The notes: a model not told the origin generated them from the letters alone. Shown: positions 3,657 through 19,601, numbered from the stretch's first letter. The stretch is 37,282 bases of DNA from Bacteroidota bacterium (GCA_041165265.1 JBEANU010000273.1:1-37282), one strand, 5' to 3'. Numbers and translations are program-made.

Positions 3657-5714
3657 TTAATTCTTCACTCCTAAAAAAGAATATTTTTTACCATATTCCA
3701 TTGCTTGTTCGTAGAACGATTTTGGATATTCAACTTTTACATCCGTAATTTTTTCACCATCCATTACAGGTACTAATCGTGGTTGAATAAATCCTTTGTA
3801 AGGTTTCAAACCTAATGTAGCATAGCGTTCTAACACTTCTTTTAATAAATTTTGGTCAACTTTTACACCATAGTTTTCTACTAAATCTTTTCCGCCTTTA
3901 TAATCACCTTCTGATTTTACACGTTGAATTTCTTTTAATAACTGACCAAATAATATTCTTAATTTTTCATAGTCATTAATGCGTACATACGTTTTGCCAT
4001 CACGTTTTACAAATTCAATTACATTATCTTTTTTACCATGCTCATACGCCCACATAGCATTCAACTGACGATTACGCATATGTGCTTCTTCCAAATTATC
4101 ACCCATTTTAATACGGGTTAATTGCATGATTAAACCATTAGTAATGTAGTTGTCGTATTGTGCTTTAGCCACATCCATATTTGGCATTACACCCAATTCA
4201 ATCAATTTATTATCCATTATATAATATAAGCCAACTAAATCTGCACGGGCTTCTTCTAAGCAGCTTGCATAGTTTTTCAAAGTCTTATCAGTAGTTTCAA
4301 CACCCTTGTTAATTTGACCCGAAGCATGACCAATACACTCATGCATATCGGTATGTAAATCGCTACCCAAAGCGCCATATTTTTTATACCGATTGATAAC
4401 TGTTGAATCATATCCAAATTCATCAAACGAACCTTTTCTTGCACTCATCATATTGTATGAAGCCACAATATTGCTTAACGAAACTGATTTGCTACCGTGG
4501 TCTTTTCTTATCCAATCTGCATTTGGCAAATTGATACCAATTGGTGTAGAAGGGGCTGCATCGCCAGCTTCAACCACCACAGTAATTGCTTTAGCAGTAA
4601 TACCTTTTACTTCTTTCTTTTTATGTTCGGCAGCAATTGGCGAATTATCTTCAAACCATTGCGCATTGCTAGCAATTTTTGCCACCATTTTAGTAGCTTC
4701 CATATCTTTAATACTTACACAACTTTCGAAGCTAGCTTTTTTACCAATGGCATCGCCATATACTTCTATAAATCCATTTACACAATCAATACGGCTATCA
4801 ACATCATTTACCCATGAAATGCAGTATTCATCAAAATCTTTTAAATCGCCAGTTTTATAAAATTTAACCAGCTTCGTTAAAGCATCTTTTTGTTTATCGT
4901 TTTCAGCAACTGTTACAGCTTTTTCTAACCAACTTACCATCTTTTCAATAGCTGCACTATACATGCCACCTACTTTCCAAACCTTCTCAACTATTTGTCC
5001 GTTTTCTTTCGTGGTTTTGCTGTTTAATCCCCAACTTGGTGCATTGCCAGCGGTAGGAAATTTTGCATAAAAAGCTTCCACTTCTTTTTGCGAAACACCT
5101 TCATAAAAATTATTTGAAGATGCTGCAATGTTATCAATACCTGCACGTAAATCAACTTCTTTGGCTTTGTATTTAATATCAAACATTTCGGGTTGAATGC
5201 GTTTTAAAAATGCATCTAAGCTTTCGCCTTCATTTACCGGAAATCCTTTTGCATCGCTTGCTTTAGCAATAGTTGTAAAATATTCAAACGAACATTCGGG
5301 TACAAATTTATCATTGCTATAATGATGATGATTGCCATTACTAAACCAAAAACGGCCACAATATTCTTCAAATTTTTTCCAATCAGATGATGATTTATCA
5401 CCATTGTAAGTGCCATAAATATTCTCGATTGTTTTGCGTAACAAAATTCCGTCTTTGCTTTTTTGGTCGTAAATAATATCCCGTCCGCTTAATGCAGCTT
5501 CGTATAAATAATACGCCAAAGTTTTTTGTTGTAAACTCAATTCATTGAATCCTGGAATTTGATAACGCAACAATTGCAAATCGGCAAACGATTCGGCAGC
5601 TACTTCAAAATTTTCTTCGGTTTTGTTTTCCGTTGTTTTGGGTTGATTATTGCACGATGGCAAGGCAAATGTAGAGGCAGCTAAGGCTACAGCTATTGAC
5701 ATTCTTTTTATCAT
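3657..5714 (-). CDS. dipeptidyl-peptidase III-like zinc metallopeptidase (family M49), probable lipoprotein
   Basis: 685 aa. HECIGH (the HExxGH motif of M49) and a downstream EEARAD second zinc motif. N-terminal signal sequence ending ALPSC. Confidence 0.85.
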   Translation of the reverse strand: MIKRMSIAVALAASTFALPSCNNQPKTTENKTEENFEVAAESFADLQLLRYQIPGFNELSLQQKTLAYYLYEAALSGRDIIYDQKSKDGILLRKTIENIYGTYNGDKSSSDWKKFEEYCGRFWFSNGNHHHYSNDKFVPECSFEYFTTIAKASDAKGFPVNEGESLDAFLKRIQPEMFDIKYKAKEVDLRAGIDNIAASSNNFYEGVSQKEVEAFYAKFPTAGNAPSWGLNSKTTKENGQIVEKVWKVGGMYSAAIEKMVSWLEKAVTVAENDKQKDALTKLVKFYKTGDLKDFDEYCISWVNDVDSRIDCVNGFIEVYGDAIGKKASFESCVSIKDMEATKMVAKIASNAQWFEDNSPIAAEHKKKEVKGITAKAITVVVEAGDAAPSTPIGINLPNADWIRKDHGSKSVSLSNIVASYNMMSARKGSFDEFGYDSTVINRYKKYGALGSDLHTDMHECIGHASGQINKGVETTDKTLKNYASCLEEARADLVGLYYIMDNKLIELGVMPNMDVAKAQYDNYITNGLIMQLTRIKMGDNLEEAHMRNRQLNAMWAYEHGKKDNVIEFVKRDGKTYVRINDYEKLRILFGQLLKEIQRVKSEGDYKGGKDLVENYGVKVDQNLLKEVLERYATLGLKPYKGFIQPRLVPVMDGEKITDVKVEYPKSFYEQAMEYGKKYSFLGVKN

Positions 5715-5862
5715 TTTAAAATTTTTTTTAAGTGAGGCAAATGTAAGAAATGGATATTAAAGAATTAGGTAATTATTATTGAACCCGTTGTGGATTTCAG
5801 AAAAAGTACTTTAAAAAAACCCTTGTTAATAAAATAATATTAACCTAAAATGTAGCAGAAAA

Positions 5863-5961
5863 CAAGGTGGCTAAAGCCAAAAATTCAATTGCTGTTCATT
5901 AACCCCCTACTTAAGTTGGGGGTTACAAAATACAGTTCTATCAAAGGCTTTAGCCCCCTTG
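5863..5961. repeat. nested inverted-repeat element in the divergent intergenic region
   Basis: The outer arms caaggtggctaaagcc (5863-5878) and ggctttagcccccttg (5946-5961) pair at 15 of 16 positions. They enclose a central near-perfect 24-nt palindrome, aaccccctacttaagttgggggtt (5901-5924). Confidence 0.6.
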
Positions 5962-6093
5962 AAATAAATTTTACTAAATGCATAACGGGTTATTAAATCA
6001 ATATGCTTTAACTTGAAGCTAATATTTAATTAACATTTAGGTAATATTAGATTGTGATTTTTGCGTCAACAAAAAACAAATCGTTAACCTAAC

Positions 6094-7398
6094 ATGAAGA
6101 AATTATTTACATTTTTATCCTTGTTTGTTATTAGTATCTGCACATTTGCACAATCTAATGATTCCATTAACATGGCTTTAAATCAACACGAATCAGATTT
6201 ATCTGTATTAAAAAGAATTAAAATTGAGGCTTACATACAAGCTCAATATCAAATTGCTGAAGCAAACGGTGCAAAATCATTTGAAGGCGGCAATTTTGCT
6301 ACAGGAGTTGATAAAAGATTTATGCTTCGTCGTGGTCGTTTTCGTTTAACATACGAGCACAACAATTTTAAATTATTTATGCAACCTAATTTATCAGAAA
6401 ACGGTATTCAATTAATGGATTTTTGGGGCAAAATAAAAGAAAACAAATGGAATACATTTGGTTTGCAAATGGGGCTAATGAATCGGCCATTTGGTTATGA
6501 AATTGGCTATTCATCCATGACAAGAGAAACGCCTGAACGTGGCAGAATGAGCCAATCTATATTTCCTAGCGAACGTGATTTAGGTGCAATGGTTATTTAC
6601 GAGCCGCTTTCAGCAAGCAGAATGCATTGGTTAAAAATTGAAGCAGGTATTTATAATGGCACAGGAACATCAAATCCTGTTGATATTGCTACAAAAGGCG
6701 CTGGCCCTGATTTCGATTATAAAAAAGATTTCATTGGTCATTTCATTTTAAAAAATTCATATTTTGGTGAAAGATTAAAACTTAGTGGCGGTGCCAGTTA
6801 TTACAATGGTGGTATAGTTCAAGCCGATAAATTTGTTTATTCAATGTCTAAAAATTCTGATGGCGAATCAATCTATATGGTTGATTCATCAATTAATAAT
6901 AAAGGCAAAATTGCCAAAAAAGAATATATGGGGGTTGATTTTCAAGCTTCGTTAGATTGGAAAGTAGGATTAACAACTATTAGAGCGGAATACATTCAAG
7001 GTGTTCAACCATCTTCAAAATCTGATTCAAGAACTACACCAGTGCCACCAAGTGCCGAAACTGTAAACAGAAATTTTAATGGCGCATACTTTTATTTTGT
7101 TCAAAATATAGCTCATTCAAAACATAATATTGTAGTAAAATACGATTGGTACGATCCTAATACAAAAATTAGTGGTAAATCATTAACTGCAAAAGATTCA
7201 AAGGCAAAATCAACTAATATTACCGCAACCGATATCAAGTATAAAACTTTAGGATTAGGTTATTTATATACCTTAAACGAACATGTAAAATTAATGTTAT
7301 ACTTTGCTTATGTTGAAAATGAAAATACAAAAATTGCAGGATATACCAGCAATTTAAAAGATAATGTATTTACTGCTAGGGTGCAATACAAGTTTTAA
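6094..7398 (+). CDS. outer-membrane porin (phosphate-selective porin O/P-like)
   Basis: Signal peptide ending TFAQ, alternating beta-strand pattern, and a C-terminal ...ARVQYKF aromatic terminus typical of OM beta-barrels. Family assigned from memory. Confidence 0.7.
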   Translation: MKKLFTFLSLFVISICTFAQSNDSINMALNQHESDLSVLKRIKIEAYIQAQYQIAEANGAKSFEGGNFATGVDKRFMLRRGRFRLTYEHNNFKLFMQPNLSENGIQLMDFWGKIKENKWNTFGLQMGLMNRPFGYEIGYSSMTRETPERGRMSQSIFPSERDLGAMVIYEPLSASRMHWLKIEAGIYNGTGTSNPVDIATKGAGPDFDYKKDFIGHFILKNSYFGERLKLSGGASYYNGGIVQADKFVYSMSKNSDGESIYMVDSSINNKGKIAKKEYMGVDFQASLDWKVGLTTIRAEYIQGVQPSSKSDSRTTPVPPSAETVNRNFNGAYFYFVQNIAHSKHNIVVKYDWYDPNTKISGKSLTAKDSKAKSTNITATDIKYKTLGLGYLYTLNEHVKLMLYFAYVENENTKIAGYTSNLKDNVFTARVQYKF

Positions 7399-7416
7399 TG
7401 AACATAAAAAAATCAA

Positions 7417-7454
7417 AAAGCCTTCATCAAAAAAAAATGAAGGCTTTTGTTTTA
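7417..7454 (+). terminator. rho-independent terminator after the porin gene
   Basis: aaagccttcat-N9-atgaaggcttt followed by ttgtttt. Confidence 0.75.
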
Positions 7455-7497
7455 AAAAATTTAACAGATAAAATAGATTCTTCTACTAAACAAAAAA

Positions 7498-7505
7498 TAC
7501 TTTTG
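7498..7505 (+). promoter_or_regulatory. candidate -7 element TACTTTTG
   Basis: TAnnTTTG lies 17 nt upstream of the ATG at 7523. No clear -33 TTTG at canonical spacing. Confidence 0.3.
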
Positions 7506-7522
7506 TGCGTTATAGTTAGCTA

Positions 7523-7837
7523 ATGAATAAAAAAATAAAATATTTTATTCCTATTTTTATAGCATTGGTATGCTTGATGTATCAAGCTATGCCAGTGCAT
7601 CAATTGTTTTTTGCCGATTCTGCTTTTTCGGTATCATTGATTGAAGAAGATGACACCGATACAGAAAAAGAAAACTCAACTCTGAAAAAAATAAAATCAG
7701 AAGGTAAAGATTTTGTAGCTGCTGAATTGCTTAGCCTTTTTTTCAATTCGTATTCAAGTTTTACTTATTACTACTTACACTTACCTCAATCATTTGAAGT
7801 AAATACAGTTTTTGCGCCACCGCCCGAGTTAGTTTAA
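7523..7837 (+). CDS. 104-aa membrane-anchored protein of unrecognised family, paralogue 1
   Basis: N-terminal hydrophobic segment YFIPIFIALVCLMYQAMP, acidic centre EEDDTDTEKEN, and C-terminus VFAPPPELV. Collinear with 12370-12684. Confidence 0.7.
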   Translation: MNKKIKYFIPIFIALVCLMYQAMPVHQLFFADSAFSVSLIEEDDTDTEKENSTLKKIKSEGKDFVAAELLSLFFNSYSSFTYYYLHLPQSFEVNTVFAPPPELV

Positions 7838-7920
7838 TCATTTTTTATTAAAAGAAATGTACGCCTTTTAAAGGTGCACAAATTCATTTGTATTTAATTA
7901 TTAATTAAATTAACTAAATC

Positions 7921-9594
7921 ATGTCATCTATTGAAATTTTAAATCCATTAAAAAGATTAGGGCAAGTACTTAATCTTGAAAAAAAAGAAATTAGCTCCAT
8001 TTATTTATTTGCAATTATTTCAGGTTTTTTGCAATTAATTATACCAGTAGGCATACAAGCCATTATTAATTTTTCAATGGCAGGTGTAATAACAACATCA
8101 CTCATACTGCTTATTACCACCGTTTTAGTAGTTATTATTTTAATTGGATGGTTGCAAGTTGGGCAAATGCGCATTATTGAAAAAATTGAACAACGAATTT
8201 TCACCAGATACGCCTTTGAGTTTGCTTGGCGCATTCCTAAAATTGATTTAAAACATGTGGATGATTATTACATGCCAGAGGTTGTGAATCGTTTTTTTGA
8301 TACTATTTCATTTCAAAAAAGTTTTAGCAAATTACTGCTTGATATACCAATTGCAATAATGCAAGTTACCTTCGGAATTATCTTGCTTTCGTTTTATTCC
8401 AGCATTTTTGTAATTTTTTGCCTATTAATAATTGCAGTTATTTATTTGATACTTCGCTTCACAAGCCGAAAAGGGCTTGAAACCAGTATGCAGGAAAGTG
8501 ATTATAAATATCAACTAGTAGCTTGGTTAGAGGAAGTAGCAAGGGTTTTTAAATCATTTCATTTTGCCAAAAACTCAACTTTACCCGTTGATAAAACGGA
8601 TACAATTGTAACCCATTATTTAGAGTCGAGAACTGCACATTTTAAAATATTAGTTGCCCAATATTGGTCATTAATTGCCTTTAAATTTTTAATCACCGCA
8701 TCAACCTTAGTAATTGGTTGCCTACTATTTATCAATAATAAAATTAATGTTGGGCAATTTGTGGCAGCTGAAATAGTGATTATTAGTGTAATGAACGCCG
8801 TTGAAAAATTGGTGCAAAGCTTAGATAAGGTTTATGATTTATTAACTAGTATTGAAAAACTAGGAAAAATAATTGATAAACCATTTGAACAAACTGGAAC
8901 AATAGATTTTATTGATAACCATGCAGGAATGGCCATTGAAATTGAAAATTTAAATTATGGATACGAGCCTAATAAAACTTTAATTGAAAATTTAAATTTA
9001 AATATTCAAGCCGGGCAAAAAGTATGTATCACAGGAAAAGTTGGTTCCGGAAAATCAACTTTATTAAAATTATTAACGGGTTGTTATCATGATTTTAATG
9101 GCAGTATTCGTTTAAATAAATTACCAATTGGTAACTATAATTTACATTCACTCCGCTCTGAAATTGGAATTATGTTTAACCAAACAGAGCTATTTCAAGG
9201 CAGCCTAATTGAAAATATTACATTAGGTGATAAAAGCATATCAATAAACCAAATTTTAAGTTTATCTGAAAAAATTGGCTTGCTTGATTTTATATCCAAC
9301 TCAAAAGAGGGTTTAGATACTTTCATTTCGTCAATGGGCAAAAAACTACCTAATGGAATTGCTCAAAAAATATTATTGGTAAGAGCCTTAGTGGGCAATC
9401 CTAAATTATTATTGTTAGAAAATCCTTGGAATGAAATGGATGAAATAAGCGCTCAAAAAGTTAAACATCTATTATTATCAAATCAATTGCCAGCAACTTG
9501 TTTGGTAATTACCAACGATTTAAGCTTTGAGGCAAATTGCGATTTATCTATAAATTTTGATACCCAAAACATTATTGTTAAAAATAAAATTTAA
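7921..9594 (+). CDS. ABC exporter (fused TMD-NBD, type I secretion/HlyB-PrtD-like, no C39 peptidase domain) with non-canonical catalytic motifs
   Basis: 557 aa. The N-terminal half is multi-TM. Walker A is GKVGSGKST (aa 372-380). The Q-loop reads MFNQTELF. The signature position reads LPNGI instead of LSGGQ. Walker B reads LLLLEN instead of hhhhDE. The H-loop reads ITND instead of ITH. Confidence 0.8.
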   Translation: MSSIEILNPLKRLGQVLNLEKKEISSIYLFAIISGFLQLIIPVGIQAIINFSMAGVITTSLILLITTVLVVIILIGWLQVGQMRIIEKIEQRIFTRYAFEFAWRIPKIDLKHVDDYYMPEVVNRFFDTISFQKSFSKLLLDIPIAIMQVTFGIILLSFYSSIFVIFCLLIIAVIYLILRFTSRKGLETSMQESDYKYQLVAWLEEVARVFKSFHFAKNSTLPVDKTDTIVTHYLESRTAHFKILVAQYWSLIAFKFLITASTLVIGCLLFINNKINVGQFVAAEIVIISVMNAVEKLVQSLDKVYDLLTSIEKLGKIIDKPFEQTGTIDFIDNHAGMAIEIENLNYGYEPNKTLIENLNLNIQAGQKVCITGKVGSGKSTLLKLLTGCYHDFNGSIRLNKLPIGNYNLHSLRSEIGIMFNQTELFQGSLIENITLGDKSISINQILSLSEKIGLLDFISNSKEGLDTFISSMGKKLPNGIAQKILLVRALVGNPKLLLLENPWNEMDEISAQKVKHLLLSNQLPATCLVITNDLSFEANCDLSINFDTQNIIVKNKI

Positions 9595-9602
9595 TTGAAA
9601 AA

Positions 9603-10949
9603 ATGAAATTATTAACAGAAGATATTGAAAAGGAAATAGGCAAACGGTTAAACTCATTCAATAAAATTTATAGGCAAAACAAAACCAGTAGCATCAAATT
9701 AATTTCATGGATTTTGCTTCCCACCGCCTTATTAATTCTATTGCTGCCATGGACCCAAAACATAAGAACCAAAGGCGATATTACTACCAAATATCAGCAA
9801 GATAGGCCCCAACAAATCAATAGCATCATACCCGGCAAAATTGCAAAATGGTATATTAAAGAAGGCGATTATGTAAAAAAAGGTGATACCATAGCGCAAC
9901 TTGCTGAAATTAAAGATGATTATTTAGACCCACTTTTTTTAACTAAAACGCAAGCACAATTAACAGCCGAAAAAAATTACATACTATCCTATCATCAAAA
10001 AATTGAGAGTTATTACCTTCAAATTAATGCATTGGAAAATGAAAAAATGCTTAAAATAAAATCGATAGATAATAAAATTCAACAAACCATTAGAAAGATA
10101 AATTCAGATAGTTTAAAAATGATGGCAGCCAACAATGAATTAACTATTTACGAACGCCAACTAAGTGCAGCCAATAAAATGCACAGCCAAGGCGTAATTG
10201 CGCTTACTGAGTTGGAAAAAAGAAAAGCTAATTTGCAAAACACTAATGCAAAATTTATTGGAGCAACTAATGATTATAATAATACAAAACAAGAATTGGT
10301 AATTATTCAGCTAGATAAAAGTGCCATTGTTCAAACTTATTTAGAAAAAATTGCAAAGGCAAAAAGTGAAATTTTTCAGAGTGAATCACAAATTGCAGCC
10401 GCACAAGGTAAGTTAGCAAAGCTTGAAAATCAATTTGCAAATTATAGTATAAGGGCTGGGCAATATTATATTCTTTCACCACAAGATGGACAAATTATTA
10501 AAGCCAAAAAAGGTGGTATTCATGAAATTATAAAAGATGGAGAAATGATTGTAGAAGTTGTTCCTACTCAATCACAAAAAGCTGCTGAAATTTGGGTTGA
10601 TCCTATGGATTTACAACTTTTAGAGGTTGGGCAAGAAATAAGATTACAATTTGATGGCTTTCCTGCTATTGTTTTTAGCGGTTGGCCCAATCAATCGTAC
10701 GGAACTTTTGTGGGTGAAATTTTGATGATTGAAACCAATGTGGGTGACAATAATAAGTTCAGGGTTTTGGTAACTGAAAATAAAAAAGCCAAAGCATGGC
10801 CCACTGAATTGAAATTGGGTGGCGGTGTTAAAGCATTTGCTATGCTAAAAAATGTACCAATTTGGTATGAACTATGGCGGCAAATTAATGGCTTCCCACC
10901 TGATTTTTACAAAAAAAATGATCCCTCAACTATTTTGAAAAACAAATGA
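9603..10949 (+). CDS. HlyD-family membrane fusion (periplasmic adaptor) protein
   Basis: 448 aa. N-terminal TM segment, lipoyl-like motif IIPGKIAKWYIKEGDYVKKGDTIAQL, a long coiled-coil segment and a beta-barrel C-terminus. Starts 8 nt after the ABC gene. Confidence 0.8.
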   Translation: MKLLTEDIEKEIGKRLNSFNKIYRQNKTSSIKLISWILLPTALLILLLPWTQNIRTKGDITTKYQQDRPQQINSIIPGKIAKWYIKEGDYVKKGDTIAQLAEIKDDYLDPLFLTKTQAQLTAEKNYILSYHQKIESYYLQINALENEKMLKIKSIDNKIQQTIRKINSDSLKMMAANNELTIYERQLSAANKMHSQGVIALTELEKRKANLQNTNAKFIGATNDYNNTKQELVIIQLDKSAIVQTYLEKIAKAKSEIFQSESQIAAAQGKLAKLENQFANYSIRAGQYYILSPQDGQIIKAKKGGIHEIIKDGEMIVEVVPTQSQKAAEIWVDPMDLQLLEVGQEIRLQFDGFPAIVFSGWPNQSYGTFVGEILMIETNVGDNNKFRVLVTENKKAKAWPTELKLGGGVKAFAMLKNVPIWYELWRQINGFPPDFYKKNDPSTILKNK

Positions 10950-12346
10950 AAAAAATAATCCTATCATTTATTCTATTTTATATATCACCTACTATATCAA
11001 CGGCACAAACTGATGATAAAGTTTTGCCTTTAGATACATTTTTACATTGGGTGATACTAAATCATCCTATAGCTATACAAGCTAATCTTAATGTAAAAAT
11101 TGCGGCTGCTGAAATTTTAGCAGCAAGAGGAAGTTTTGACCCAACTTTAAGTTTCAATAATGACTCAAAAAAATTAAGTGGAGTCAATTACTATAATTAC
11201 GCAAATGCTGATTTATCCATTCCTACTTGGTTTGGAGTTAAATTAAATGGTGGATTTGAAAATAATTTGGGCAACCAAATCAGTAATGAACTTACGCCAA
11301 AAGCCAGTACATATGCTGGGGTATCTGTTCCATTATTAAAAGATTTACTTTTTGATAAACGCCGTGCAGCTTTAAAACAAGCTTTAATTTTTAAAAACCA
11401 ATCTGAATGGGATAAAAAAAATACCCTCAATAATTTATATACCGATGCATATATTGCTTATTTAAATTGGGTAAAAGAATATTTAATTTATGGCCTACTT
11501 ACCCGAGTAAATGCCACCAACTCAAACAGATTTAAGTTTACAAAAAAATTGTTTGAAAGTGGTGATAAATCAGCCATTGATACCATTGAAGGGTTAACTC
11601 AATTGCAAAATTTTGAATTACTATTAAATGAATCAAAGCTTAGATTAGTGAAACAATATTATGAATTAAGTAATTTTTTATGGTTAAATAATCAACCCAT
11701 TTACTTAAAAGATAAGATAGTGCCTGATACAACTGTTCTTTCAAATTTAAATTTTACAATTGATACAGCACAGTTTTTTTCACAGTTTGAACAACACCCC
11801 AAAATTCAATCCCTAAACTCTAAAATAAACTGGATTAAAACTGAGCAAAAACTCAAATTTCAATCATTATTGCCGCAAGTAAATGTTAAATATAATTTTT
11901 TACAAAAAGGTTATTATCCATCCGATTTCAATCAAAATCAATTTTTACAAAACAATTATAAATATGGCATTTCGGTGAGCATTCCAATTCCAAACAGAAA
12001 TGCATTTGCGCAGTATAACATGAGCAAATTAAAAGTTGAAATAACAAAAACTGAACAGCAATATCAACTTACAATGCTTAAAAATAAAGCCTCCTACTAT
12101 GTATCTGAAATTGAAAATATAAACAAACAAATTTATGCTACATCAAAATTGGGCGCTAATTACAAATTATTACTTGATACTGAAGAGATGAAATTTCATT
12201 TAGGAGAAACATCTTTATTTTTACTGAACAATAGGGAAATAAAATGGCTAGAATCAATCATTAAACTAACTGAACTAAAATCAAAAATTCTTGTTTCAAT
12301 AATTAGTTTAAAGAATTATTCAAATCAAATTAAAGTTGCCCAATAA
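10946..12346 (+). CDS. TolC-family outer-membrane efflux protein
   Basis: 466 aa. Signal peptide ending STAQ and a two-repeat helical/beta pattern typical of OMF proteins. ATGA overlap with the HlyD gene. Confidence 0.75.
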   Translation: MKKIILSFILFYISPTISTAQTDDKVLPLDTFLHWVILNHPIAIQANLNVKIAAAEILAARGSFDPTLSFNNDSKKLSGVNYYNYANADLSIPTWFGVKLNGGFENNLGNQISNELTPKASTYAGVSVPLLKDLLFDKRRAALKQALIFKNQSEWDKKNTLNNLYTDAYIAYLNWVKEYLIYGLLTRVNATNSNRFKFTKKLFESGDKSAIDTIEGLTQLQNFELLLNESKLRLVKQYYELSNFLWLNNQPIYLKDKIVPDTTVLSNLNFTIDTAQFFSQFEQHPKIQSLNSKINWIKTEQKLKFQSLLPQVNVKYNFLQKGYYPSDFNQNQFLQNNYKYGISVSIPIPNRNAFAQYNMSKLKVEITKTEQQYQLTMLKNKASYYVSEIENINKQIYATSKLGANYKLLLDTEEMKFHLGETSLFLLNNREIKWLESIIKLTELKSKILVSIISLKNYSNQIKVAQ

Positions 12347-12353
12347 ATAATCT

Positions 12354-12361
12354 TAACTTTG
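12354..12361 (+). promoter_or_regulatory. candidate -7 element TAACTTTG
   Basis: TAnnTTTG lies 8 nt upstream of the ATG at 12370, which would give a near-leaderless mRNA. Co-transcription with tolC is an alternative. Confidence 0.25.
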
Positions 12362-12369
12362 CGCCATAG

Positions 12370-12684
12370 ATGAATCAAAACCGAAAATATTTTATTCCTA
12401 TTTTTATAGCATTGGTTTGCTTGATGTATCAGGCCATGCCAATTCATAAATTATTTTCAACTGATTCAGTTTTTTCGGTATCAATGATTGATGAAGATGA
12501 CAATGATGCTGAAAAAGAAAACCCAACTTCAAAAAAAGTAAAATCTGAAGTGGATGATTTTATTACCTCTGATACGGTTTTGCTTTTTGTAAATCCATCA
12601 TCCAATACTATTTATTATTTCCATCATTTACCCAAATCATTTGAGGTAACATCAGTATTTGCGCCACCGCCCGAGTTAGTTTAA
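12370..12684 (+). CDS. 104-aa membrane-anchored protein of unrecognised family, paralogue 2
   Basis: Gap-free alignment with 7523-7837, roughly two-thirds identical by hand count. Identical KYFIPIFIALVCLMYQAMP and VFAPPPELV termini. Confidence 0.7.
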   Translation: MNQNRKYFIPIFIALVCLMYQAMPIHKLFSTDSVFSVSMIDEDDNDAEKENPTSKKVKSEVDDFITSDTVLLFVNPSSNTIYYFHHLPKSFEVTSVFAPPPELV

Positions 12685-12774
12685 TTTCTTGAATTTTCAG
12701 CTTTCAGTTTTCATTGCTTTTTTAAGTAGCAATGATTCGTCATTTATTCAAAAAATTAAATTCAAACATTTTCA

Positions 12775-14409
12775 ATGAACAAAATATTTAGTGAAATCAA
12801 ACCTAATTTATCATCAGGTTTGGTAGTATTTTTAGTAGCACTTCCGTTGTGTTTAGGAATTGCTTTAGCATCAGGTGCTCCACTGTTTTCAGGAATGATA
12901 GCAGGCATTATTGGTGGCATTATTGTAGGAAGTTTAAGTGGCTCGGCATTAAGTGTAAGTGGGCCTGCGGCTGGCTTAGCGGCGGTGGTGTTGGGCTCCA
13001 TTCATAAATTAGGAAGTTATGAAACATTTGTATTAGCAGTGTTTTTAGCTGGCTTGATTCAATTGGCATTAGGCTTTTTAAAGGCAGGTATTGTTGCCAA
13101 TTTTTTTCCGAGTAATGTTATTAAAGGAATGCTGACTGCCATTGGTGTTATTATCATCATGAAGCAAATACCACACTTTTTTGGGTATGATAAAGATGCC
13201 GAAGGCGATTTAGATTTTCTTCAACCGGATGGTGATAACACTTTCACGGCACTGCTTGAACCCTTTTATCATATTGATTTAGGAGCAACTATTATTGGCA
13301 TAGTTTCAATATTAATTATTTTGGGTTGGGATAAATACAAATCAAAAAAAATTGCTTTTATACCTGGTGCGGCGGTGGCAGTAATTATTGCTTCAATAAT
13401 TAATCAACTTTGGATTTCAACCCATTCTAATTTTGCATTGGCATCTAATCACTTAGTACAACTACCAATTTTACATTCGTTTGATGAAATAAAAAATACC
13501 ATTAGCTTTCCTGATTTTTCAAAAATAATGATGAAAGATGTATGGGTAGTAGCTTTTACAATTGCCATCGTTGCATCCATTGAAACACTACTATCATTGG
13601 ATGCCGTTGATAAAATGGATGAACACAAACGTCATTCGCCGGTAAACCAAGAATTGAAAGCACAAGGCATAGGCAATGCATTAAGCGGATTAATTGGTGG
13701 GTTACCTATTACTTCAGTAATAGTGCGCAGTTCAGCCAATGTAAATTCAGGTGCCACCAATAAAAGTTCAGCTATAATACATGGTGTTTTTTTGTTGGTT
13801 TGTGCATTACTCATTCCTACTTTATTGAATAAAATTCCTATCACCACATTAGCATCTGTATTGCTAATTACAGGTTACAAACTCACTAATTTCAATGTTT
13901 ACAAACAAATGTGGAAGAAGGGGAAATATCAATTTGTTCCGTTTATTATAACAGTTGTAGCCGTTGTATTCACTGATTTATTAACTGGTGTAACCATTGG
14001 TATGGCAATGAGTGTATTTGCTATTTTAAGTGGTAATATAAAATTGCCTTATCAATACAAAAAGGAATTTACTGATGAAGGGCATATCATCCGAATTGAT
14101 TTATCACAAGAAATTACTTTTTTGAACAAAGCCGCTGTTAAAGATTTTTTAGATAGAATTCCTACCCAAAGTAAAGTGATTATAAATGCCGAAACCACTA
14201 AATACATTGACCATGATGTGTTGGAAATTATCAGAGATTTTAAAGAAGTAATTGCAGTTGAAAAAAACATCAAAGTTTCAACTACTGGCTTTAGGGATGA
14301 ATACAAAATTGAAAATAGTTTTCCGATGCATGTGGAAGATTATCATTCGCATTCAGATAAAAAAATTATTAAAGACTTAATGGAAAAACACCAACTCTCA
14401 AATCAATAA
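12775..14409 (+). CDS. SulP-family anion (sulfate/bicarbonate) transporter with C-terminal STAS domain
   Basis: 544 aa. N-terminus LVALPLCLGIALASGAP, multi-TM core, and a cytoplasmic STAS-like tail (IIRIDLSQEITFLNKAAV...). Confidence 0.85.
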   Translation: MNKIFSEIKPNLSSGLVVFLVALPLCLGIALASGAPLFSGMIAGIIGGIIVGSLSGSALSVSGPAAGLAAVVLGSIHKLGSYETFVLAVFLAGLIQLALGFLKAGIVANFFPSNVIKGMLTAIGVIIIMKQIPHFFGYDKDAEGDLDFLQPDGDNTFTALLEPFYHIDLGATIIGIVSILIILGWDKYKSKKIAFIPGAAVAVIIASIINQLWISTHSNFALASNHLVQLPILHSFDEIKNTISFPDFSKIMMKDVWVVAFTIAIVASIETLLSLDAVDKMDEHKRHSPVNQELKAQGIGNALSGLIGGLPITSVIVRSSANVNSGATNKSSAIIHGVFLLVCALLIPTLLNKIPITTLASVLLITGYKLTNFNVYKQMWKKGKYQFVPFIITVVAVVFTDLLTGVTIGMAMSVFAILSGNIKLPYQYKKEFTDEGHIIRIDLSQEITFLNKAAVKDFLDRIPTQSKVIINAETTKYIDHDVLEIIRDFKEVIAVEKNIKVSTTGFRDEYKIENSFPMHVEDYHSHSDKKIIKDLMEKHQLSNQ

Positions 14410-14427
14410 CAAATAAAAAAAATAATT

Positions 14428-15039
14428 ATGTACACACATACTAAAGAATCTCAAAGCAATATTGCGCCGCATCAAGCCATTGAATTTTTAATGGAAGGCA
14501 ACAAACGATTTGTAAACAACTTAAAAATAAATCGCAATTTATTACAACAAGTAAATGCTACTAAAGATGGGCAACATCCGTTTGCAGTTATACTTAGTTG
14601 TATTGATTCACGAACATCAGCTGAGTTAATTTTCGACCAAGGATTAGGCGATATTTTCAGCGTTAGGATTGCAGGAAATATTGTGAATGATGACATTTTA
14701 GGAAGCATGGAATTTGCTTGTAAAGTGGCTGGCGCAAAAGCCATAGTAGTTTTAGGTCATACAGGTTGCGGCGCTGTTAAAGGCGCTTGTAATCATGTTG
14801 AAATGGGGCATTTAACAGGGTTAGTAAATAAAATAAAACCAGCAGTTGAAGCCGTTGAATTAAAATATCCTACTGCTAACGGTGAAAAAGTAGATTTAGT
14901 AGCTACAGAAAATGTTCATTTAATGGTAAATGAAGTGAAAAACAGAAGTTCAATTATCAATGAGATGCTTCAACAAAAGCAAATTCAAATCATTGGAGCA
15001 ATGTATAATGTTGAAACTGGGATTGTAAATTTTTATTAA
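14428..15039 (+). CDS. beta-class carbonic anhydrase
   Basis: Zinc-ligand motifs SCIDSR (CxDxR) and GHTGCGA (HxxC). Confidence 0.85.
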   Translation: MYTHTKESQSNIAPHQAIEFLMEGNKRFVNNLKINRNLLQQVNATKDGQHPFAVILSCIDSRTSAELIFDQGLGDIFSVRIAGNIVNDDILGSMEFACKVAGAKAIVVLGHTGCGAVKGACNHVEMGHLTGLVNKIKPAVEAVELKYPTANGEKVDLVATENVHLMVNEVKNRSSIINEMLQQKQIQIIGAMYNVETGIVNFY

Positions 15040-15080
15040 TCATCTAAAAAGAAAATTGGTTTTCGATTGTTTAATGTTAC

Positions 15081-15118
15081 AAAAGCCCTTACATACTATT
15101 ATGTTGGGGCTTTTTGTT
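15081..15118 (+). terminator. rho-independent terminator after the carbonic anhydrase gene
   Basis: aaaagccc-loop-gggctttttgtt. Confidence 0.6.
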
Positions 15119-15235
15119 GTAACAGTTCAATACGCTAAAAAAATATTTATTTATGTATCAACCACCTAAAAAGCAAATTGCCTTTCCACAATTTTTTGTT
15201 TTTAGTTTATTACATTTGCCTACCTAATTACCATC

Positions 15236-16762
15236 ATGAATTTATTTGGCAATATTATAAAAAATGCACTTACACTGCGTAAGCGATTTGAAGCCGGCAG
15301 CAAACTTTCAGCTTATCAAAAACAGCATAAGCAATTGCTAAAATTACTTAAAACTGCCCAATACACTGATTTTGGAGTGCATTATCAATTTTCAAAAATT
15401 CTTACTTCATCATTTCACATACATCAACAATTTAAAACACAAGTACCCGTATTTAATTACAATAAATTATTTGATGAATGGTGGAAACAAACTTTAGAAG
15501 GTCATCAAAATGTATGTTGGCCAGGCAAAGTAAATTATTTTGCATTAAGTAGCGGCACCAGCGAATCGGGCAGCAAACGCATACCCATTACAAGCGATAT
15601 GCTAAAAAGCATTAAGCGTACCAGTATGCGCCAAGTATTAAGTTTAACTGATTTTAATTTGCCTGATGAAACGTTTTCAAAAGGAGCATTATTATTAGGC
15701 GGTAGCACCAAGCTTACTTTTAAACATGAATATTACGAAGGCGATTTAAGTGGTATAAGCGCCAAACACAGGCCAATGTGGTTTCATAGATATTATAAAC
15801 CGGGAAGCAAAATTGCCAAACAAAAAAATTGGGACGAAAAAATAAATCAAATGGTTGAAAGTGCTGATAAATGGGATATCGGCATTATTGTAGGCATACC
15901 CAGTTGGATTCAATTATTATTAGAAAAAATTATTGAACGCTATCAACTTACTACCATTCACGATTTATGGCCCAACTTAAATTTATATATTCATAGCGGT
16001 GTTGCCTTTGAGCCTTATAAAAAATCATTTGAAAAATTATTTGGCAAACAAGTTCAATTTATGGAAAGTTATTTGGCAAGCGAAGGCTATTTTGCTTATC
16101 AAACCAAGCCTGATGTAAGCACCATGACTATGATGTTGAACAACGGAATTTACTACGAATTTATTCCTTTTGATGAACAACATTTTGATGAACATGGCGA
16201 AATAAAAGATGCTTCAAAAACGTATGCCATCAACGAAGTAAAAATAGGCGTTGATTACGCCATGCTCATCAGCACATGTGCTGGCACTTGGCGTTATTTA
16301 ATTGGTGATGTAATACGATTTGCCGATATTGAAAAATGTGAAATAAATATTACTGGCCGAACCAAACATTTTTTAAGCATCACCGGTGAGCATTTAAGTG
16401 TTGAAAATATGAGTAAAGCTATTAGTGCTACTTCAAATGATTTTAATGTAGATATTAAAGAATATACAGTTTGCGCTGAACAATTTGGAAATTTATTTGC
16501 TCATAGATGGTTTATTGGTTGTGATGAAAAATTAGATACAGATGCCGTAAAAACAACTTTAGATCATCATTTAAGGCAGTTAAATGATGATTATGATACC
16601 GAACGAAACTCCGCTTTAAAAGAAGTATTTATTGAAATAATACCACATCAAAAATTTTTAGATTTTTTAAAAGAAGAAGGTAAAGTGGGTGCTCAAATTA
16701 AATTTCCACGAGTGTTAAAAGGGGAACAACTGAAAAGATGGAAAATGTTTTTGGATAAATAA
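15236..16762 (+). CDS. GH3 (auxin-responsive promoter) family adenylating enzyme homologue
   Basis: 508 aa. The overall pattern (FALSSGTSESGSKRIP...YLASEGYFAYQ...TGRTKHFL) matches bacterial GH3-family proteins. TACATTTG lies 17 nt upstream of the ATG. Confidence 0.75.
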   Translation: MNLFGNIIKNALTLRKRFEAGSKLSAYQKQHKQLLKLLKTAQYTDFGVHYQFSKILTSSFHIHQQFKTQVPVFNYNKLFDEWWKQTLEGHQNVCWPGKVNYFALSSGTSESGSKRIPITSDMLKSIKRTSMRQVLSLTDFNLPDETFSKGALLLGGSTKLTFKHEYYEGDLSGISAKHRPMWFHRYYKPGSKIAKQKNWDEKINQMVESADKWDIGIIVGIPSWIQLLLEKIIERYQLTTIHDLWPNLNLYIHSGVAFEPYKKSFEKLFGKQVQFMESYLASEGYFAYQTKPDVSTMTMMLNNGIYYEFIPFDEQHFDEHGEIKDASKTYAINEVKIGVDYAMLISTCAGTWRYLIGDVIRFADIEKCEINITGRTKHFLSITGEHLSVENMSKAISATSNDFNVDIKEYTVCAEQFGNLFAHRWFIGCDEKLDTDAVKTTLDHHLRQLNDDYDTERNSALKEVFIEIIPHQKFLDFLKEEGKVGAQIKFPRVLKGEQLKRWKMFLDK

Positions 16763-16773
16763 AATTTACCGCA

Positions 16774-18333
16774 TCATTCCTTCACAAATTTACCATTCAT
16801 CATATTGCCTTTTGTATCTGTTGCTTTTATGAAATAAATTCCGTTTGGTAGTGATGATACATCAAATTGAATTTGTTGAGTTGATGAGTTATTGATTTGT
16901 TGATTAGATGCTTCGTTCCTCAGTATGACACGACCTAACACATCCGTTACCTCAATTGCATTTACTAATGGCTGATGACTAATGACTATTGACTGCGAAG
17001 CAGGATTTGGATACACTACCAAAGCCTCAACTTCTTTGTTAGAATAATTCACCACTTCTTCCACTCCATCCCATTGCTGGCAGTTATATTGTAGGCAACC
17101 ATATTTATCTACTTTTAATAAATAACCATCAGCTGGATGCACCCATTTAGTGGTTTGTACAAAGCCATTGACCATATAACCACTATCGGGGCAAAGTGTA
17201 ATTTGAAATGGATATATATTTATAGAATCATCAATATAATATTGCCGCTTCCATTTTACATTGCCTGCACTGTCTATTTTAATAATAGTTGGTTCATTGT
17301 TAGTATAAATAGTATTATACGCTGATCGGGTTTTATTGGCTAATAATACAAACTGATTGCCTGCTATTTCAAAGCCATTTAACAGCCTTGTTTCATAAGT
17401 GGTATCAATGTATTTTTTTTGCCATTGCAAATTTCCATTTGCATCTATAAAATAAATGATACCGATGGTTTCAGAGAATACTTTAAATGGTGGGTTAAAA
17501 TCTTGGTAAAAACTATCTTGCTGCCCCAATAAATAAAAGCCATTTTTTCCTTTGATAATACCATTACCAAATTCATCTTGTATGGTAGTGCCATATTGTT
17601 TTCGCCATTTTATATTACCAGCACTATCCGTACAAGTAACAAATAAATTTTTCCCTGATGTTGGGTAGCCACTTAATGAAGTTTTAGGGTTAATAAATCC
17701 ATTAATAATATAATCGTGGTTAGCCGTTTCTATTACACCATTGCCATACGTATCTTTTCCAACTATTCCTAAATCCTTTTGCCAAATAATATTACCCATT
17801 GTATCCATTTTCAAGAGGCATTGATGGTTAATGTTCCAACCGTCAGATGCAACAGTTATCACGCCTGTAATTATTAAATTATTTTCATGATTGGCAATTA
17901 AATCGAATGAAACATCCCAAGAATTTGAGACTCCGACTATTTTTGTAAGTAGGGTATCTCCATTAGGTTTTGATTTGATAAATACAAATTGGGGATAGGA
18001 ATTCAGATTATCTGAATATTCTGAAACAGAATAAATATTACTGCTAATTTGAATAATTTTTAGCGGGCCATAAAAGGAACTTGTATCACGTATTGAAGGC
18101 TTATTAATAATTGTATCTCCATTTTTATCTAAAATTGTATTAATATATCCTGAACTTAAATTAGTAACATCATACATGTTTTGTCTGCAAAAAAAAACTG
18201 AATCGTTCAAATACACAGGATTTGAGATATAGTTTAGTTTTTTATTAAATTCAATAGTTTTTTCAAATCTGATTTGTTGTGCATTACAGAAATAGTTCAA
18301 AAAAAATAACAAAAGAAAAAAGTAATACCTCAT
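16774..18333 (-). CDS. secreted repeat protein with type A T9SS C-terminal sorting domain
   Basis: Signal peptide ending CNAQ. Recurrent GN(I/L/V)xW(Q/R)K motifs suggest a propeller-like fold. C-terminus reads VYPNPA...LPNGIYFIKATDTKGNMMNGKFVKE. Confidence 0.8.
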   Translation of the reverse strand: MRYYFFLLLFFLNYFCNAQQIRFEKTIEFNKKLNYISNPVYLNDSVFFCRQNMYDVTNLSSGYINTILDKNGDTIINKPSIRDTSSFYGPLKIIQISSNIYSVSEYSDNLNSYPQFVFIKSKPNGDTLLTKIVGVSNSWDVSFDLIANHENNLIITGVITVASDGWNINHQCLLKMDTMGNIIWQKDLGIVGKDTYGNGVIETANHDYIINGFINPKTSLSGYPTSGKNLFVTCTDSAGNIKWRKQYGTTIQDEFGNGIIKGKNGFYLLGQQDSFYQDFNPPFKVFSETIGIIYFIDANGNLQWQKKYIDTTYETRLLNGFEIAGNQFVLLANKTRSAYNTIYTNNEPTIIKIDSAGNVKWKRQYYIDDSINIYPFQITLCPDSGYMVNGFVQTTKWVHPADGYLLKVDKYGCLQYNCQQWDGVEEVVNYSNKEVEALVVYPNPASQSIVISHQPLVNAIEVTDVLGRVILRNEASNQQINNSSTQQIQFDVSSLPNGIYFIKATDTKGNMMNGKFVKE

Positions 18334-18363
18334 AATTGCATTATTTAATTATCACTTCGCCGA

Positions 18364-18383
18364 GGTGAGTGTCCTCACTCACC
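18364..18383 (-). terminator. GC-rich stem-loop downstream of the T9SS pseudogene (possible terminator)
   Basis: ggtgagtg-tcct-cactcacc. There is no clear U-tract on the minus strand, so this is tentative. Confidence 0.3.
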
Positions 18384-18450
18384 GCTTTATTGTTTAAAGT
18401 ATAGTACAACTTATTCGCAAAATTCATGGTATGAAATTAATGAAAATATT

Positions 18451-19451
18451 TTACTCTTTCACAAACTTCCCATTCATCATATTGCCTTTTGTATCTGTTG
18501 ATTTGATGAAGTATATTCCGTTTGGTAAAGTGGATACATCTAATTGAATTTGTTGAGTTGATGGGTTATTGATTTGTTGATTAGATGCTTCGTCCCTCAG
18601 CAAGACACGACCTAACACATCCGTTACCTCAATTGTATTTACTAATGGCTGATGACCAGTAACCGATAACTTCTCCCCACATGGGTTTGGGTAAACCTCC
18701 AACTTCCTTACTCCCACTTCCTCTACTCCATCATTTTCAACTAACTCAACATGCACATCATCTACATAAAAGTAACTATTTGAACCTTTGTTGTGTGCTA
18801 AATCAAAAAAATTACCAATAGTAAAATATCTATAAGCACTATCAGCTATAAATGTTCCTTCTACCTTTATCCAATTAAGGGTATCATCTATAACAGTAAC
18901 ATCATTTATTTTTGGTTTAATATTCTTAATTTGAAAAGTAATATTAGTTTGCCATGCATATACAGAATCATAGTAATGATAAGTAGTGAAACCTACCCCA
19001 AAGTTATTCATGGAATCAAAAAAAGGACCTTCCTTTACCACATAAAAATAACATTTATATTTTTTACCAATTTGTAAACTTGCACTTAATCTACCCTGTA
19101 TATATTCTCTGCCGCTTGTTGTGCCCCCCAAAGGAATGAACCCTGCAAAAGCATCCCCATCTTTAGCATATTGAAATCCCCCCCCCCTATAATTAAAGTG
19201 TTTATCGGTACACCAACCAAGCCTAAAGGCATACCAATTATACCTGATGATAGATTACTAGCACACTTATTATAGTAATCAGGGGTACCATATATTGGGG
19301 AATCCCAATATAAACATATACTGTCATTAATACCACCCGGAACTCCGCTACAAGTATCACGTAATGTTTCAAAGCTGGGGTTGAGTACCAAGTTTTGGCT
19401 ATATGCTTTGTTTAGGCTTAATAGCAACATTAATAAAATTATTTTTTTCAT
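18451..19451 (-). pseudogene. T9SS-sorted surface protein gene split by a frameshift at a G10 tract (phase-variable or pseudogene)
   Basis: The N-terminal part (MKKIILLMLLLSLNKAYSQNLVLNPSFE...VGVPINTLIIGGG) and the C-terminal part (FQYAKDGDAFAGFIPLGGTTSGREYIQGRL...type A CTD) lie in different frames that meet at the homopolymer. The span is 1001 nt. A tract of G11 or G8 would give a single ORF. Confidence 0.75.
19178..19187 (-). repeat. homopolymeric tract, C10 on plus strand and G10 on coding strand
   Basis: Read directly: ttgaaa-tcccccccccc-tataatt. Confidence 0.95.
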
Positions 19452-19601
19452 ATTGATGAATTTTAAAAACAAAGGGCAGCATACACTCTCTTGTTTTAAT
19501 TCAAAGGTAGGAACTCCAGTTTTCAATTCAGTGTAAAAAATATTTTTGTTTTATTTCCTACATATTTATACATTGCAGCAAATAATTTTAAAATCAACAC
19601 T

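Follow-up and report, generated by a model that had tools for sequence, protein, structure and literature searches.

Why should a tripartite exporter be bracketed by two copies of a small gene that belongs to no recognised family, and what do these copies do? The question is raised by 37,282 nucleotides (nt) of DNA from a Bacteroidota bacterium (GCA_041165265.1 JBEANU010000273.1:1-37282; this whole stretch is called the window), in which an operon for an ATP-binding cassette (ABC) protein, a HlyD-type membrane-fusion protein (MFP) and a TolC-type outer-membrane factor (OMF) is preceded and followed by genes for 104-amino-acid (aa) proteins. Copy A (7523..7837, plus strand) heads the exporter operon, and copy B (12370..12684, plus strand) heads a second unit, encoding a SulP-family anion transporter and a carbonic anhydrase. 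The original prediction, made from the window alone, had offered three readings of the small proteins, as (a) substrates or accessory subunits of the exporter, (b) membrane regulators heading transporter operons, or (c) marks of the gain or loss of the exporter module. We now estimate, at a probability of roughly 0.5, that the small gene together with its promoter constitutes a portable regulatory cassette, likely a stalling leader, which was duplicated in front of two transporter units and whose repeats recombine the exporter.

The two small proteins align without gaps, with 69 of 104 residues identical (66%; BLASTP, E = 4e-52), and their coding DNA is 78% identical. Both carry the N-terminal sequence KYFIPIFIALVCLMYQAMP, an acidic centre (EEDDTDTEKEN and DEDDNDAEKEN) and the C-terminus VFAPPPELV, for which the final 27 nt are the same. 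The three consecutive proline codons (7817-7825 in copy A, 12664-12672 in copy B) stand out in the window: PPP occurs twice in the 10,740 residues of its open reading frames (ORFs), both times in the small proteins, with about 0.3 occurrences expected at 3.1% proline. From copy A to the ABC gene the spacer measures 83 nt, from copy B to the SulP gene 90 nt, and just 23 nt separate the TolC stop codon from the start of copy B. Between the two copies, the genes for the ABC protein (7921..9594), the HlyD-type protein (9603..10949; HlyD_3 and Biotin_lipoyl_2 matches) and the outer-membrane factor (10946..12346; Pfam OEP), all on the plus strand, lie close together, with 8 nt between the first two and an overlap of 4 nt between the last two, and form a tripartite ABC-MFP-OMF exporter in one operon; the TolC gene has its closest named relatives in Chitinophagaceae. 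The collinear paralogy, the shared sequence blocks, the tight coupling of the exporter genes and the distances to the transporter genes had all been described from the sequence at the outset, and the recalculated values agree with that description.

Relatives of the small proteins were sought among 5.8 billion proteins by two word-indexed searches, among 1.84 billion representatives by a profile search and in metagenome contigs by one DNA-pattern scan. The resulting family comprises about 19 distinct members of 103-107 aa, once shortened gene calls are extended, all from metagenomes or metagenome-assembled genomes labelled Bacteroidota; the loci are referred to by L-numbers. As the first reading of the window had it, the family is not a recognised one: no match was obtained in Pfam, NCBIfam or, by profile search, the PDB, and a full-text literature search for the family motifs returned nothing relevant. 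The metagenome scan by peptide patterns confirmed nothing, and the one using the DNA pattern for YYFHHLPKS found L022 and L023 plus four other matches, of which L019 lies antisense inside another gene and L018, L020 and L021 were taken as chance because none encodes the FAPPP tail. A lenient Pfam match to Phage_Gp23 over the membrane helix and acidic part (25.6 bits versus a cut-off of 29.3) was taken as compositional, and the JGI names 'cytochrome c oxidase assembly protein Cox11' and 'cell division protein FtsB', given to P0004 and P0131, are backed by no family search.

Within ten aligned members, Y7, L18 with YQAMPxHxxF (18-29), KKxKS (55-59), Y83 and VFAPPP (96-101) are invariant, and VFAPPP is kept unchanged down to 27% overall identity. 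Two or three varying residues follow the prolines (ELV, EIV, ELA, ELG, EFV, ECA or NQ), and the best-conserved block is formed by the approximately 24 residues preceding the stop codon. A hydrophobic stretch at residues 7-24, preceded by basic residues, is predicted to be a Sec-type signal or membrane anchor; the conserved residues of the part predicted to be exported are H26, the acidic cluster, KKxKS and HH85-86. AlphaFold2 models a single helix at residues 3-21, with the remainder below a predicted local distance difference test (pLDDT) value of about 60 and a mean of 52, which suggests that the protein beyond its N-terminal helix is disordered. Synonymous sites of the A-P-P-P codons vary among homologues while the protein is kept, and copy B compared with its orthologues has a ratio of non-synonymous to synonymous substitution (dN/dS) of about 0.16; selection therefore acts on the protein, and by these comparisons the small genes are real rather than chance ORFs.

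Gene context across the family bore out the expected association with transporters. In all of 14 distinct loci the small gene lies directly upstream of a transporter unit on the same strand, with a spacer of 73-131 nt. The next gene encodes SulP, or carbonic anhydrase followed by SulP, in eight loci (window copy B, L001/L002, L003/L009, L004, L005/L006, L007, L010/L011 and L023) and an ABC protein (-HlyD-TolC) in six (window copy A, L008, L012, L014, L015/L016/L022 and L017). In L004 and L010 the first gene after the small gene is that of a cytoplasmic carbonic anhydrase. Since SulP, carbonic anhydrase or an ABC protein may follow, the partner of the small gene is not one protein type, and with eight of the 14 loci heading SulP/carbonic anhydrase units the small protein is not specifically an exporter partner. 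The adjacency of SulP and beta-carbonic anhydrase genes is kept in L001-L005 and L010. The ABC-HlyD-TolC trio is also present in L012 and L013, and in L013 the homologous exporter (44-61% aa identity) occurs without a small gene.

These contexts bear on the proposal that the small proteins are cargo of the exporter, either type-I substrates or peptide precursors, with VFAPPPELV as secretion signal or core peptide. The small gene does directly precede the ABC gene in six loci, and its C-terminus is conserved; however, six of the eight loci with SulP/carbonic anhydrase have no adjacent exporter, the L013 exporter manages without the small gene, a hydrophobic anchor at the N-terminus is not characteristic of type-I secretion, and the last two or three residues vary. 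Nor does the exporter resemble a peptide-processing one: the ABC protein (557 aa) is a fusion of membrane and ATPase domains, the only ones given by Pfam (ABC_membrane and ABC_tran), and has no C39 peptidase domain. Its NCBIfam matches all fall far under the cut-offs, and where it aligns to models with a C39 domain (HlyB, bacteriocin and NHLM), the alignments start at about model positions 137-151, past the peptidase region. No modification enzymes are encoded nearby. Reading (a), whether as substrate or as exporter accessory, finds no support in this comparison, and a cargo role is highly improbable.

The cassette also has its own promoter. Upstream of copy A lies a conserved block, AAACAAAAAATACTTTTGTGCG (7488..7509, plus strand), which occurs once in the window, with 0 occurrences expected by chance, and which holds the Bacteroidota-type -7 box TACTTTTG (7498-7505). 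Copy B is preceded by a shortened remnant of this block with the -7 box TAACTTTG (12354..12361, plus strand), so that each paralogue has its TAnnTTTG motif, as had been noticed at the start. The block is near-identical in L002, L003, L005, L007, L008, L012, L014, L015, L017 and L023, and the consensus AAA(A)CAAAAAATACTTTTGT(G/A)(C/T)G around the -7 box is found at all loci but the most distant, L010. A TTAACA motif at 7461..7466 (plus strand) precedes the -7 box by about 32 nt and, as judged by eye, has counterparts some 32-40 nt upstream of the box in most loci of the family; a shared regulator may bind there.

At its other end the small gene may be connected to the gene that follows. At six loci, both window copies among them, RNA folding supports a long-range helix, P1, in which the last codons, the stop codon and about 10 further nt pair with positions -30 to -4 relative to the next start codon. 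In copy A the 5' strand AGUUAGUUUAAU (7827..7838; last two codons, stop and one more nucleotide) pairs with the 3' strand AUUAAAUUAACU (7904..7915; -17 to -6 from the ABC start codon), giving a duplex of -10.3 kcal/mol with z = -3.0 to -3.1 versus shuffles. In copy B the 5' strand (12674..12694, which begins in the last codons, includes the stop codon and extends 10 nt beyond it) pairs with AUUCAAAAAAUUAAAUUCAAAC (12746..12767; -29 to -8 from the SulP start codon; z = -3.1 to -3.8); all four strands are on the plus strand. Against dinucleotide shuffles, the z values of the P1 duplex in copy A, copy B, L002, L003, L005 and L007 range from -3.0 to -5.1, compared with a mean of 0.03, a standard deviation of 0.91 and a minimum of -1.9 among 29 control same-strand gene pairs from the window and nine related loci. 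For six SulP-type loci the RNAalifold consensus contains 16 pairs, three of them with compensatory UA/AU changes. In this alignment 94.7% of cells are paired versus 86.9 +/- 2.1% in shuffles, none of 500 being as high; the covariation score of 0.179 (0.064 in shuffles) was reached by 2 of 500, and slid controls had at most 60% of cells paired.

Every spacer furthermore contains a hairpin 21-32 nt past the stop codon (11 nt in L010), with z-scores of -1.4 to -3.4 in 11 of 12 spacers and with hairpin sequences that are unrelated between loci. In the window these inner hairpins lie on the plus strand at 7859..7879 (spacer z = -1.9) and, with the folded sequence CATTGCT...AGCAATG, at 12712..12734. 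Attenuation by terminator and antiterminator was considered and rejected, as a proper U tract is missing from most of the inner hairpins and no alternative pairing was apparent by eye. A search of 7300-13000 against Rfam gave chance-level matches only.

From this arrangement we infer ribosome stalling, action in cis and sensing of a signal by the small gene. The N-terminal anchor would target the product to the inner membrane, with the N-terminus inside and the remainder exported, so that the exported part (His26, the acidic cluster and KKxKSExDDF) would be outside while the ribosome arrives at VFAPPP and pauses. Polyproline pauses occur with Pro-Pro in the P site and Pro-tRNA in the A site, and a ribosome covers about 12-15 nt downstream of its P-site codon. 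A ribosome paused on the three prolines would have codon 100 in the P site (7820-7822 in copy A, 12667-12669 in copy B) and would cover the last codons and the stop codon, that is, the 5' strand of P1. More precisely, the first 6-9 nt of this strand would be covered, whose pairing partners are the 3'-strand nucleotides closest to the start of the next gene, and the initiation region of the transporter gene would consequently stay open. Such gating would suit Bacteroidetes, which lack Shine-Dalgarno sequences and in which mRNA structure tunes initiation (PMC6847099).

Comparison with close relatives showed what the repeats may do at the level of DNA. The DNA of L001 and L002 is about 91% identical to the window, and L002 matches 5290-7838 and 12370-15794, the two matches overlapping only in a single small gene; L001 and L002 therefore lack 7523-12369, that is, copy A and the exporter. 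Their breakpoints fall inside the small-gene repeat, the single copy having the upstream region of copy A and the body and downstream region of copy B, and copy B is its orthologue (88% aa identity). Recombination between the direct-repeat copies would add or remove this 4.85-kb block, and the comparison supports a role of the repeats in acquiring or losing the exporter. Reading (c), for which a comparison with strains carrying one copy and no exporter had been suggested, is supported. G+C content gave no clear signal of horizontal transfer (0.27-0.32 in the exporter versus 0.31-0.35 in the flanks).

The repeats could alternatively be a structural by-product of exporter insertion, one copy being a functionless scar; L001 and L002, with one copy and no module, would suit this, as would the faster evolution of copy A relative to copy B. 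Yet every family-invariant residue is present in both copies. Copy A, whose dN/dS stays under 1, forms a P1 helix of its own with the start region of the ABC gene, and small genes precede ABC genes in five other lineages. Moreover, a distant relative, L023, has the TolC 3' end followed by the full promoter block (unlike window copy B, where it is shortened), a small gene and SulP (84% aa identity to the window SulP), and L022, from the same sample, carries a small gene with ABC. As the order of TolC, small gene and SulP is thus met with a second time, the two-copy arrangement is no isolated scar, and we give this alternative very little weight.

The history of copy A appears more complex than a simple duplication. 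ABC-adjacent and SulP-adjacent small genes fall mostly into separate clades, and copy A fits neither cleanly. Its first 60 codons (the 5' 180 nt) group with copy B, L002 and L003, with a synonymous divergence (dS) between A and B of 0.47, near the value of 0.52 between B and L002. Codons 61-95, with dS 0.89 and dN/dS of about 0.5, are old and branch near ABC-type sequences, and in the final 27 nt the two copies agree where L002 and L003 differ. This pattern indicates that copy A is a gene-conversion mosaic, in which an old duplication was followed by conversion. As its N-terminal 60 residues have been homogenised with those of copy B, that half can serve in either type of unit. No donor emerged among the sampled ABC-type sequences, codons 62-93 being just 44-64% identical to every sequence. 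In L017 the ABC protein (859-2394) is 85% identical to that of the window and the small protein 45-52% identical to copies A and B; ABC-adjacent small genes seem to evolve much faster than their exporters.

The main rival explanation places the function of the small protein in trans, as a single-pass inner-membrane accessory subunit or regulator that binds the next transporter or a common partner, with specialised paralogues and FAPPP as a binding motif. The strict conservation of the membrane helix with LYQAMPxHxxF, which is almost invariant, and of KKxKSExDDF favours it, and the purifying selection along the whole protein, the largely separate ABC-adjacent and SulP-adjacent clades and the precedent of KdpF, AcrZ and similar small membrane proteins whose genes open transporter operons also speak for it. 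On the other hand, the first genes that follow members of this one family are of three unrelated kinds (ABC, SulP and cytoplasmic carbonic anhydrase), the two types have exchanged their N-terminal 60 residues, membrane helix included, and kept the gene, and the low-confidence AlphaFold model suggests disorder in the remainder. The small gene is also never tightly coupled to its neighbour, the spacer always being 73-131 nt with a hairpin, and trans action leaves both the stop-overlapping P1 helix and the location of PPP 2-3 codons before the stop unexplained. We consider trans action rather unlikely. Reading (b) has the best support from position, the small gene being first in 14 of 14 loci, with a shared promoter; the mode of action appears to be that of a cis-acting leader rather than of a membrane regulator.

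Several points nevertheless weigh against a stalling cassette that recombines the exporter. The P1 helix is absent in L004, L010, L012 and L017 and weaker, not significantly different from shuffles, in L008, L014, L015 and L023, and its compensatory changes amount to 2-3 independent events among six related sequences. The motif is FAPPP, not RAPP, and plain PPP pauses are normally relieved by elongation factor EF-P. Conservation of the membrane helix and KKxKS is stricter than targeting alone needs, so that trans action also fits. Copy A has YYYLHLPQS in place of the otherwise near-invariant YYFHHLPKS, and its dN/dS at codons 61-95 is about 0.5. Finally, the exporter difference between relatives would fit loss as well as gain. 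With these points in mind, we advance with some reserve, at slightly less than even odds, the more specific proposal of a sensor-leader peculiar to Bacteroidota, which would need no Shine-Dalgarno sequence and shows no sequence relationship to CutF or SecM: its co-translationally exported part would read an envelope signal, a stall at FAPPP over the stop-overlapping helix would turn on translation of SulP/carbonic anhydrase and of the exporter, and the gene would double as a recombination handle.

The second unit of the window consists of the SulP gene (12775..14409, plus strand; Pfam Sulfate_transp, E = 1.7e-59), whose NCBIfam matches to DauA, sulP and BicA are under the cut-offs, and a beta-class carbonic anhydrase gene (14428..15039, plus strand; Pfam Pro_CA, E = 4.7e-41). 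To the left of copy A, a hairpin with a T run, GCCTTCAT...ATGAAGGC (7420..7444, plus strand), has the same element in L002; it is likely the terminator of an upstream 434-aa gene and hence the left boundary of the unit. This gene (6094-7398) encodes a signal-like N-terminus and a C-terminus ending in ...VQYKF and is 97% conserved in L002; neither Pfam nor NCBIfam gave a match, lenient thresholds included, and the product may be an outer-membrane barrel or porin. Further upstream, a minus-strand ORF of about 101 aa (2220-2528) matches the ParE toxin (E = 3.4e-5) and is unrelated to the small genes. Beyond the second unit, L001 joins window position 16762 directly to 19535 and so lacks three minus-strand ORFs (16774-19534), two of which bear type IX secretion C-terminal sorting domains (Por_Secre_tail).

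Other loci differ in their surroundings. In seven lineages (L003, L005, L007, L008, L014, L015 and L017), in both ABC and SulP contexts, phoU directly precedes the cassette, and it follows pstCAB in L007 and L014, the two loci that reach that far; this adjacency may reflect an ancestral cassette position or a link to phosphate control. L012 (6580-16948) has a small gene followed by ABC-HlyD-TolC and no second small gene. About 3 kb downstream of its exporter are genes for Pro_CA, DUF6671 and an SbtA-like protein (Sbt_1), which again places the exporter near inorganic-carbon genes.

Stalling leaders that sense extracytoplasmic conditions are represented by few systems, mostly from Proteobacteria and Firmicutes, in which a Shine-Dalgarno sequence is unmasked. 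If the interpretation as a stalling leader is correct, it would extend such control to Bacteroidota, which ignore Shine-Dalgarno sequences and where mRNA structure alone would gate initiation. SulP with carbonic anhydrase would then be a bicarbonate-type uptake pair under leader control and would answer the same signal as an uncharacterised ABC-HlyD-TolC exporter that is sometimes adjacent, providing a handle on both functions. The two-copy arrangement is in addition a clear case of a regulatory cassette serving as homology for modular operon gain or loss.

Among known systems, KdpF and AcrZ are small single-pass membrane proteins of transporter operons, 30-50 aa long, each of which binds one specific transporter. 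They share with the small proteins their short single-pass form and position beside transporter genes but have neither a proline tail nor a stop-overlapping helix. A closer parallel is CutF (DUF2946) of Rhodobacter capsulatus, the 118-aa leader of cutFOG, which has a Sec signal, a sensor motif, the ending ...GPPPRL-stop and a stem-loop before cutO; CutF-like genes also precede transporters (PMC9973294; bioRxiv 10.1101/2025.02.05.636593). Likewise, the small proteins have about 100-120 aa, a predicted N-terminal export signal, a presumably exported middle with conserved residues and PPP 2-3 residues before the stop (FAPPPELV versus GPPPRL), and their genes lie directly upstream of the presumably regulated gene; at the six loci with a significant P1, an mRNA helix would link both. 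In contrast to CutF, they lack the CxxxC metal motif, and DUF2946 matched none of 10 family members at E values up to 10. The downstream genes are for copper there and for SulP/carbonic anhydrase and ABC-HlyD-TolC here. The hosts are Bacteroidota and, since these are without a Shine-Dalgarno sequence, what the helix covers is not a ribosome-binding site but A/U-rich sequence ahead of the start codon.

A looser likeness exists to SecM, MifM, VemP, ApdA/ApdP and RQH, in which an N-terminal signal or membrane segment is likewise joined by a variable linker to a conserved C-terminal block of about 20 residues, with prolines at its end near the stop codon, and which are also encoded upstream of the regulated gene (PMC7897499, PMC10987492, PMC12992588). 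The arginine of RAPP-type arrest peptides is reported to be irreplaceable (PMC12992588), whereas all members of the present family have phenylalanine in its place (V-F-A-P-P-P) and thus differ from RAPP and RAGP. They differ from SecM, ApdA and RQH also in their next genes, which encode SulP, carbonic anhydrase or ABC proteins and not secA, secDF or yidC. In Bordetella, the upstream ORF CruR (PMC9426467, as summarised in PMC10987492) also bears a proline motif and regulates the transporter gene behind it, the TonB-dependent bfrG; as far as that summary describes it, CruR differs in relying on RAPP and Rho-dependent termination and has no homology to the small proteins. By analogy, then, the small gene resembles CutF-cutO and SecM-secA in the logic of its geometry, not in its sequence.

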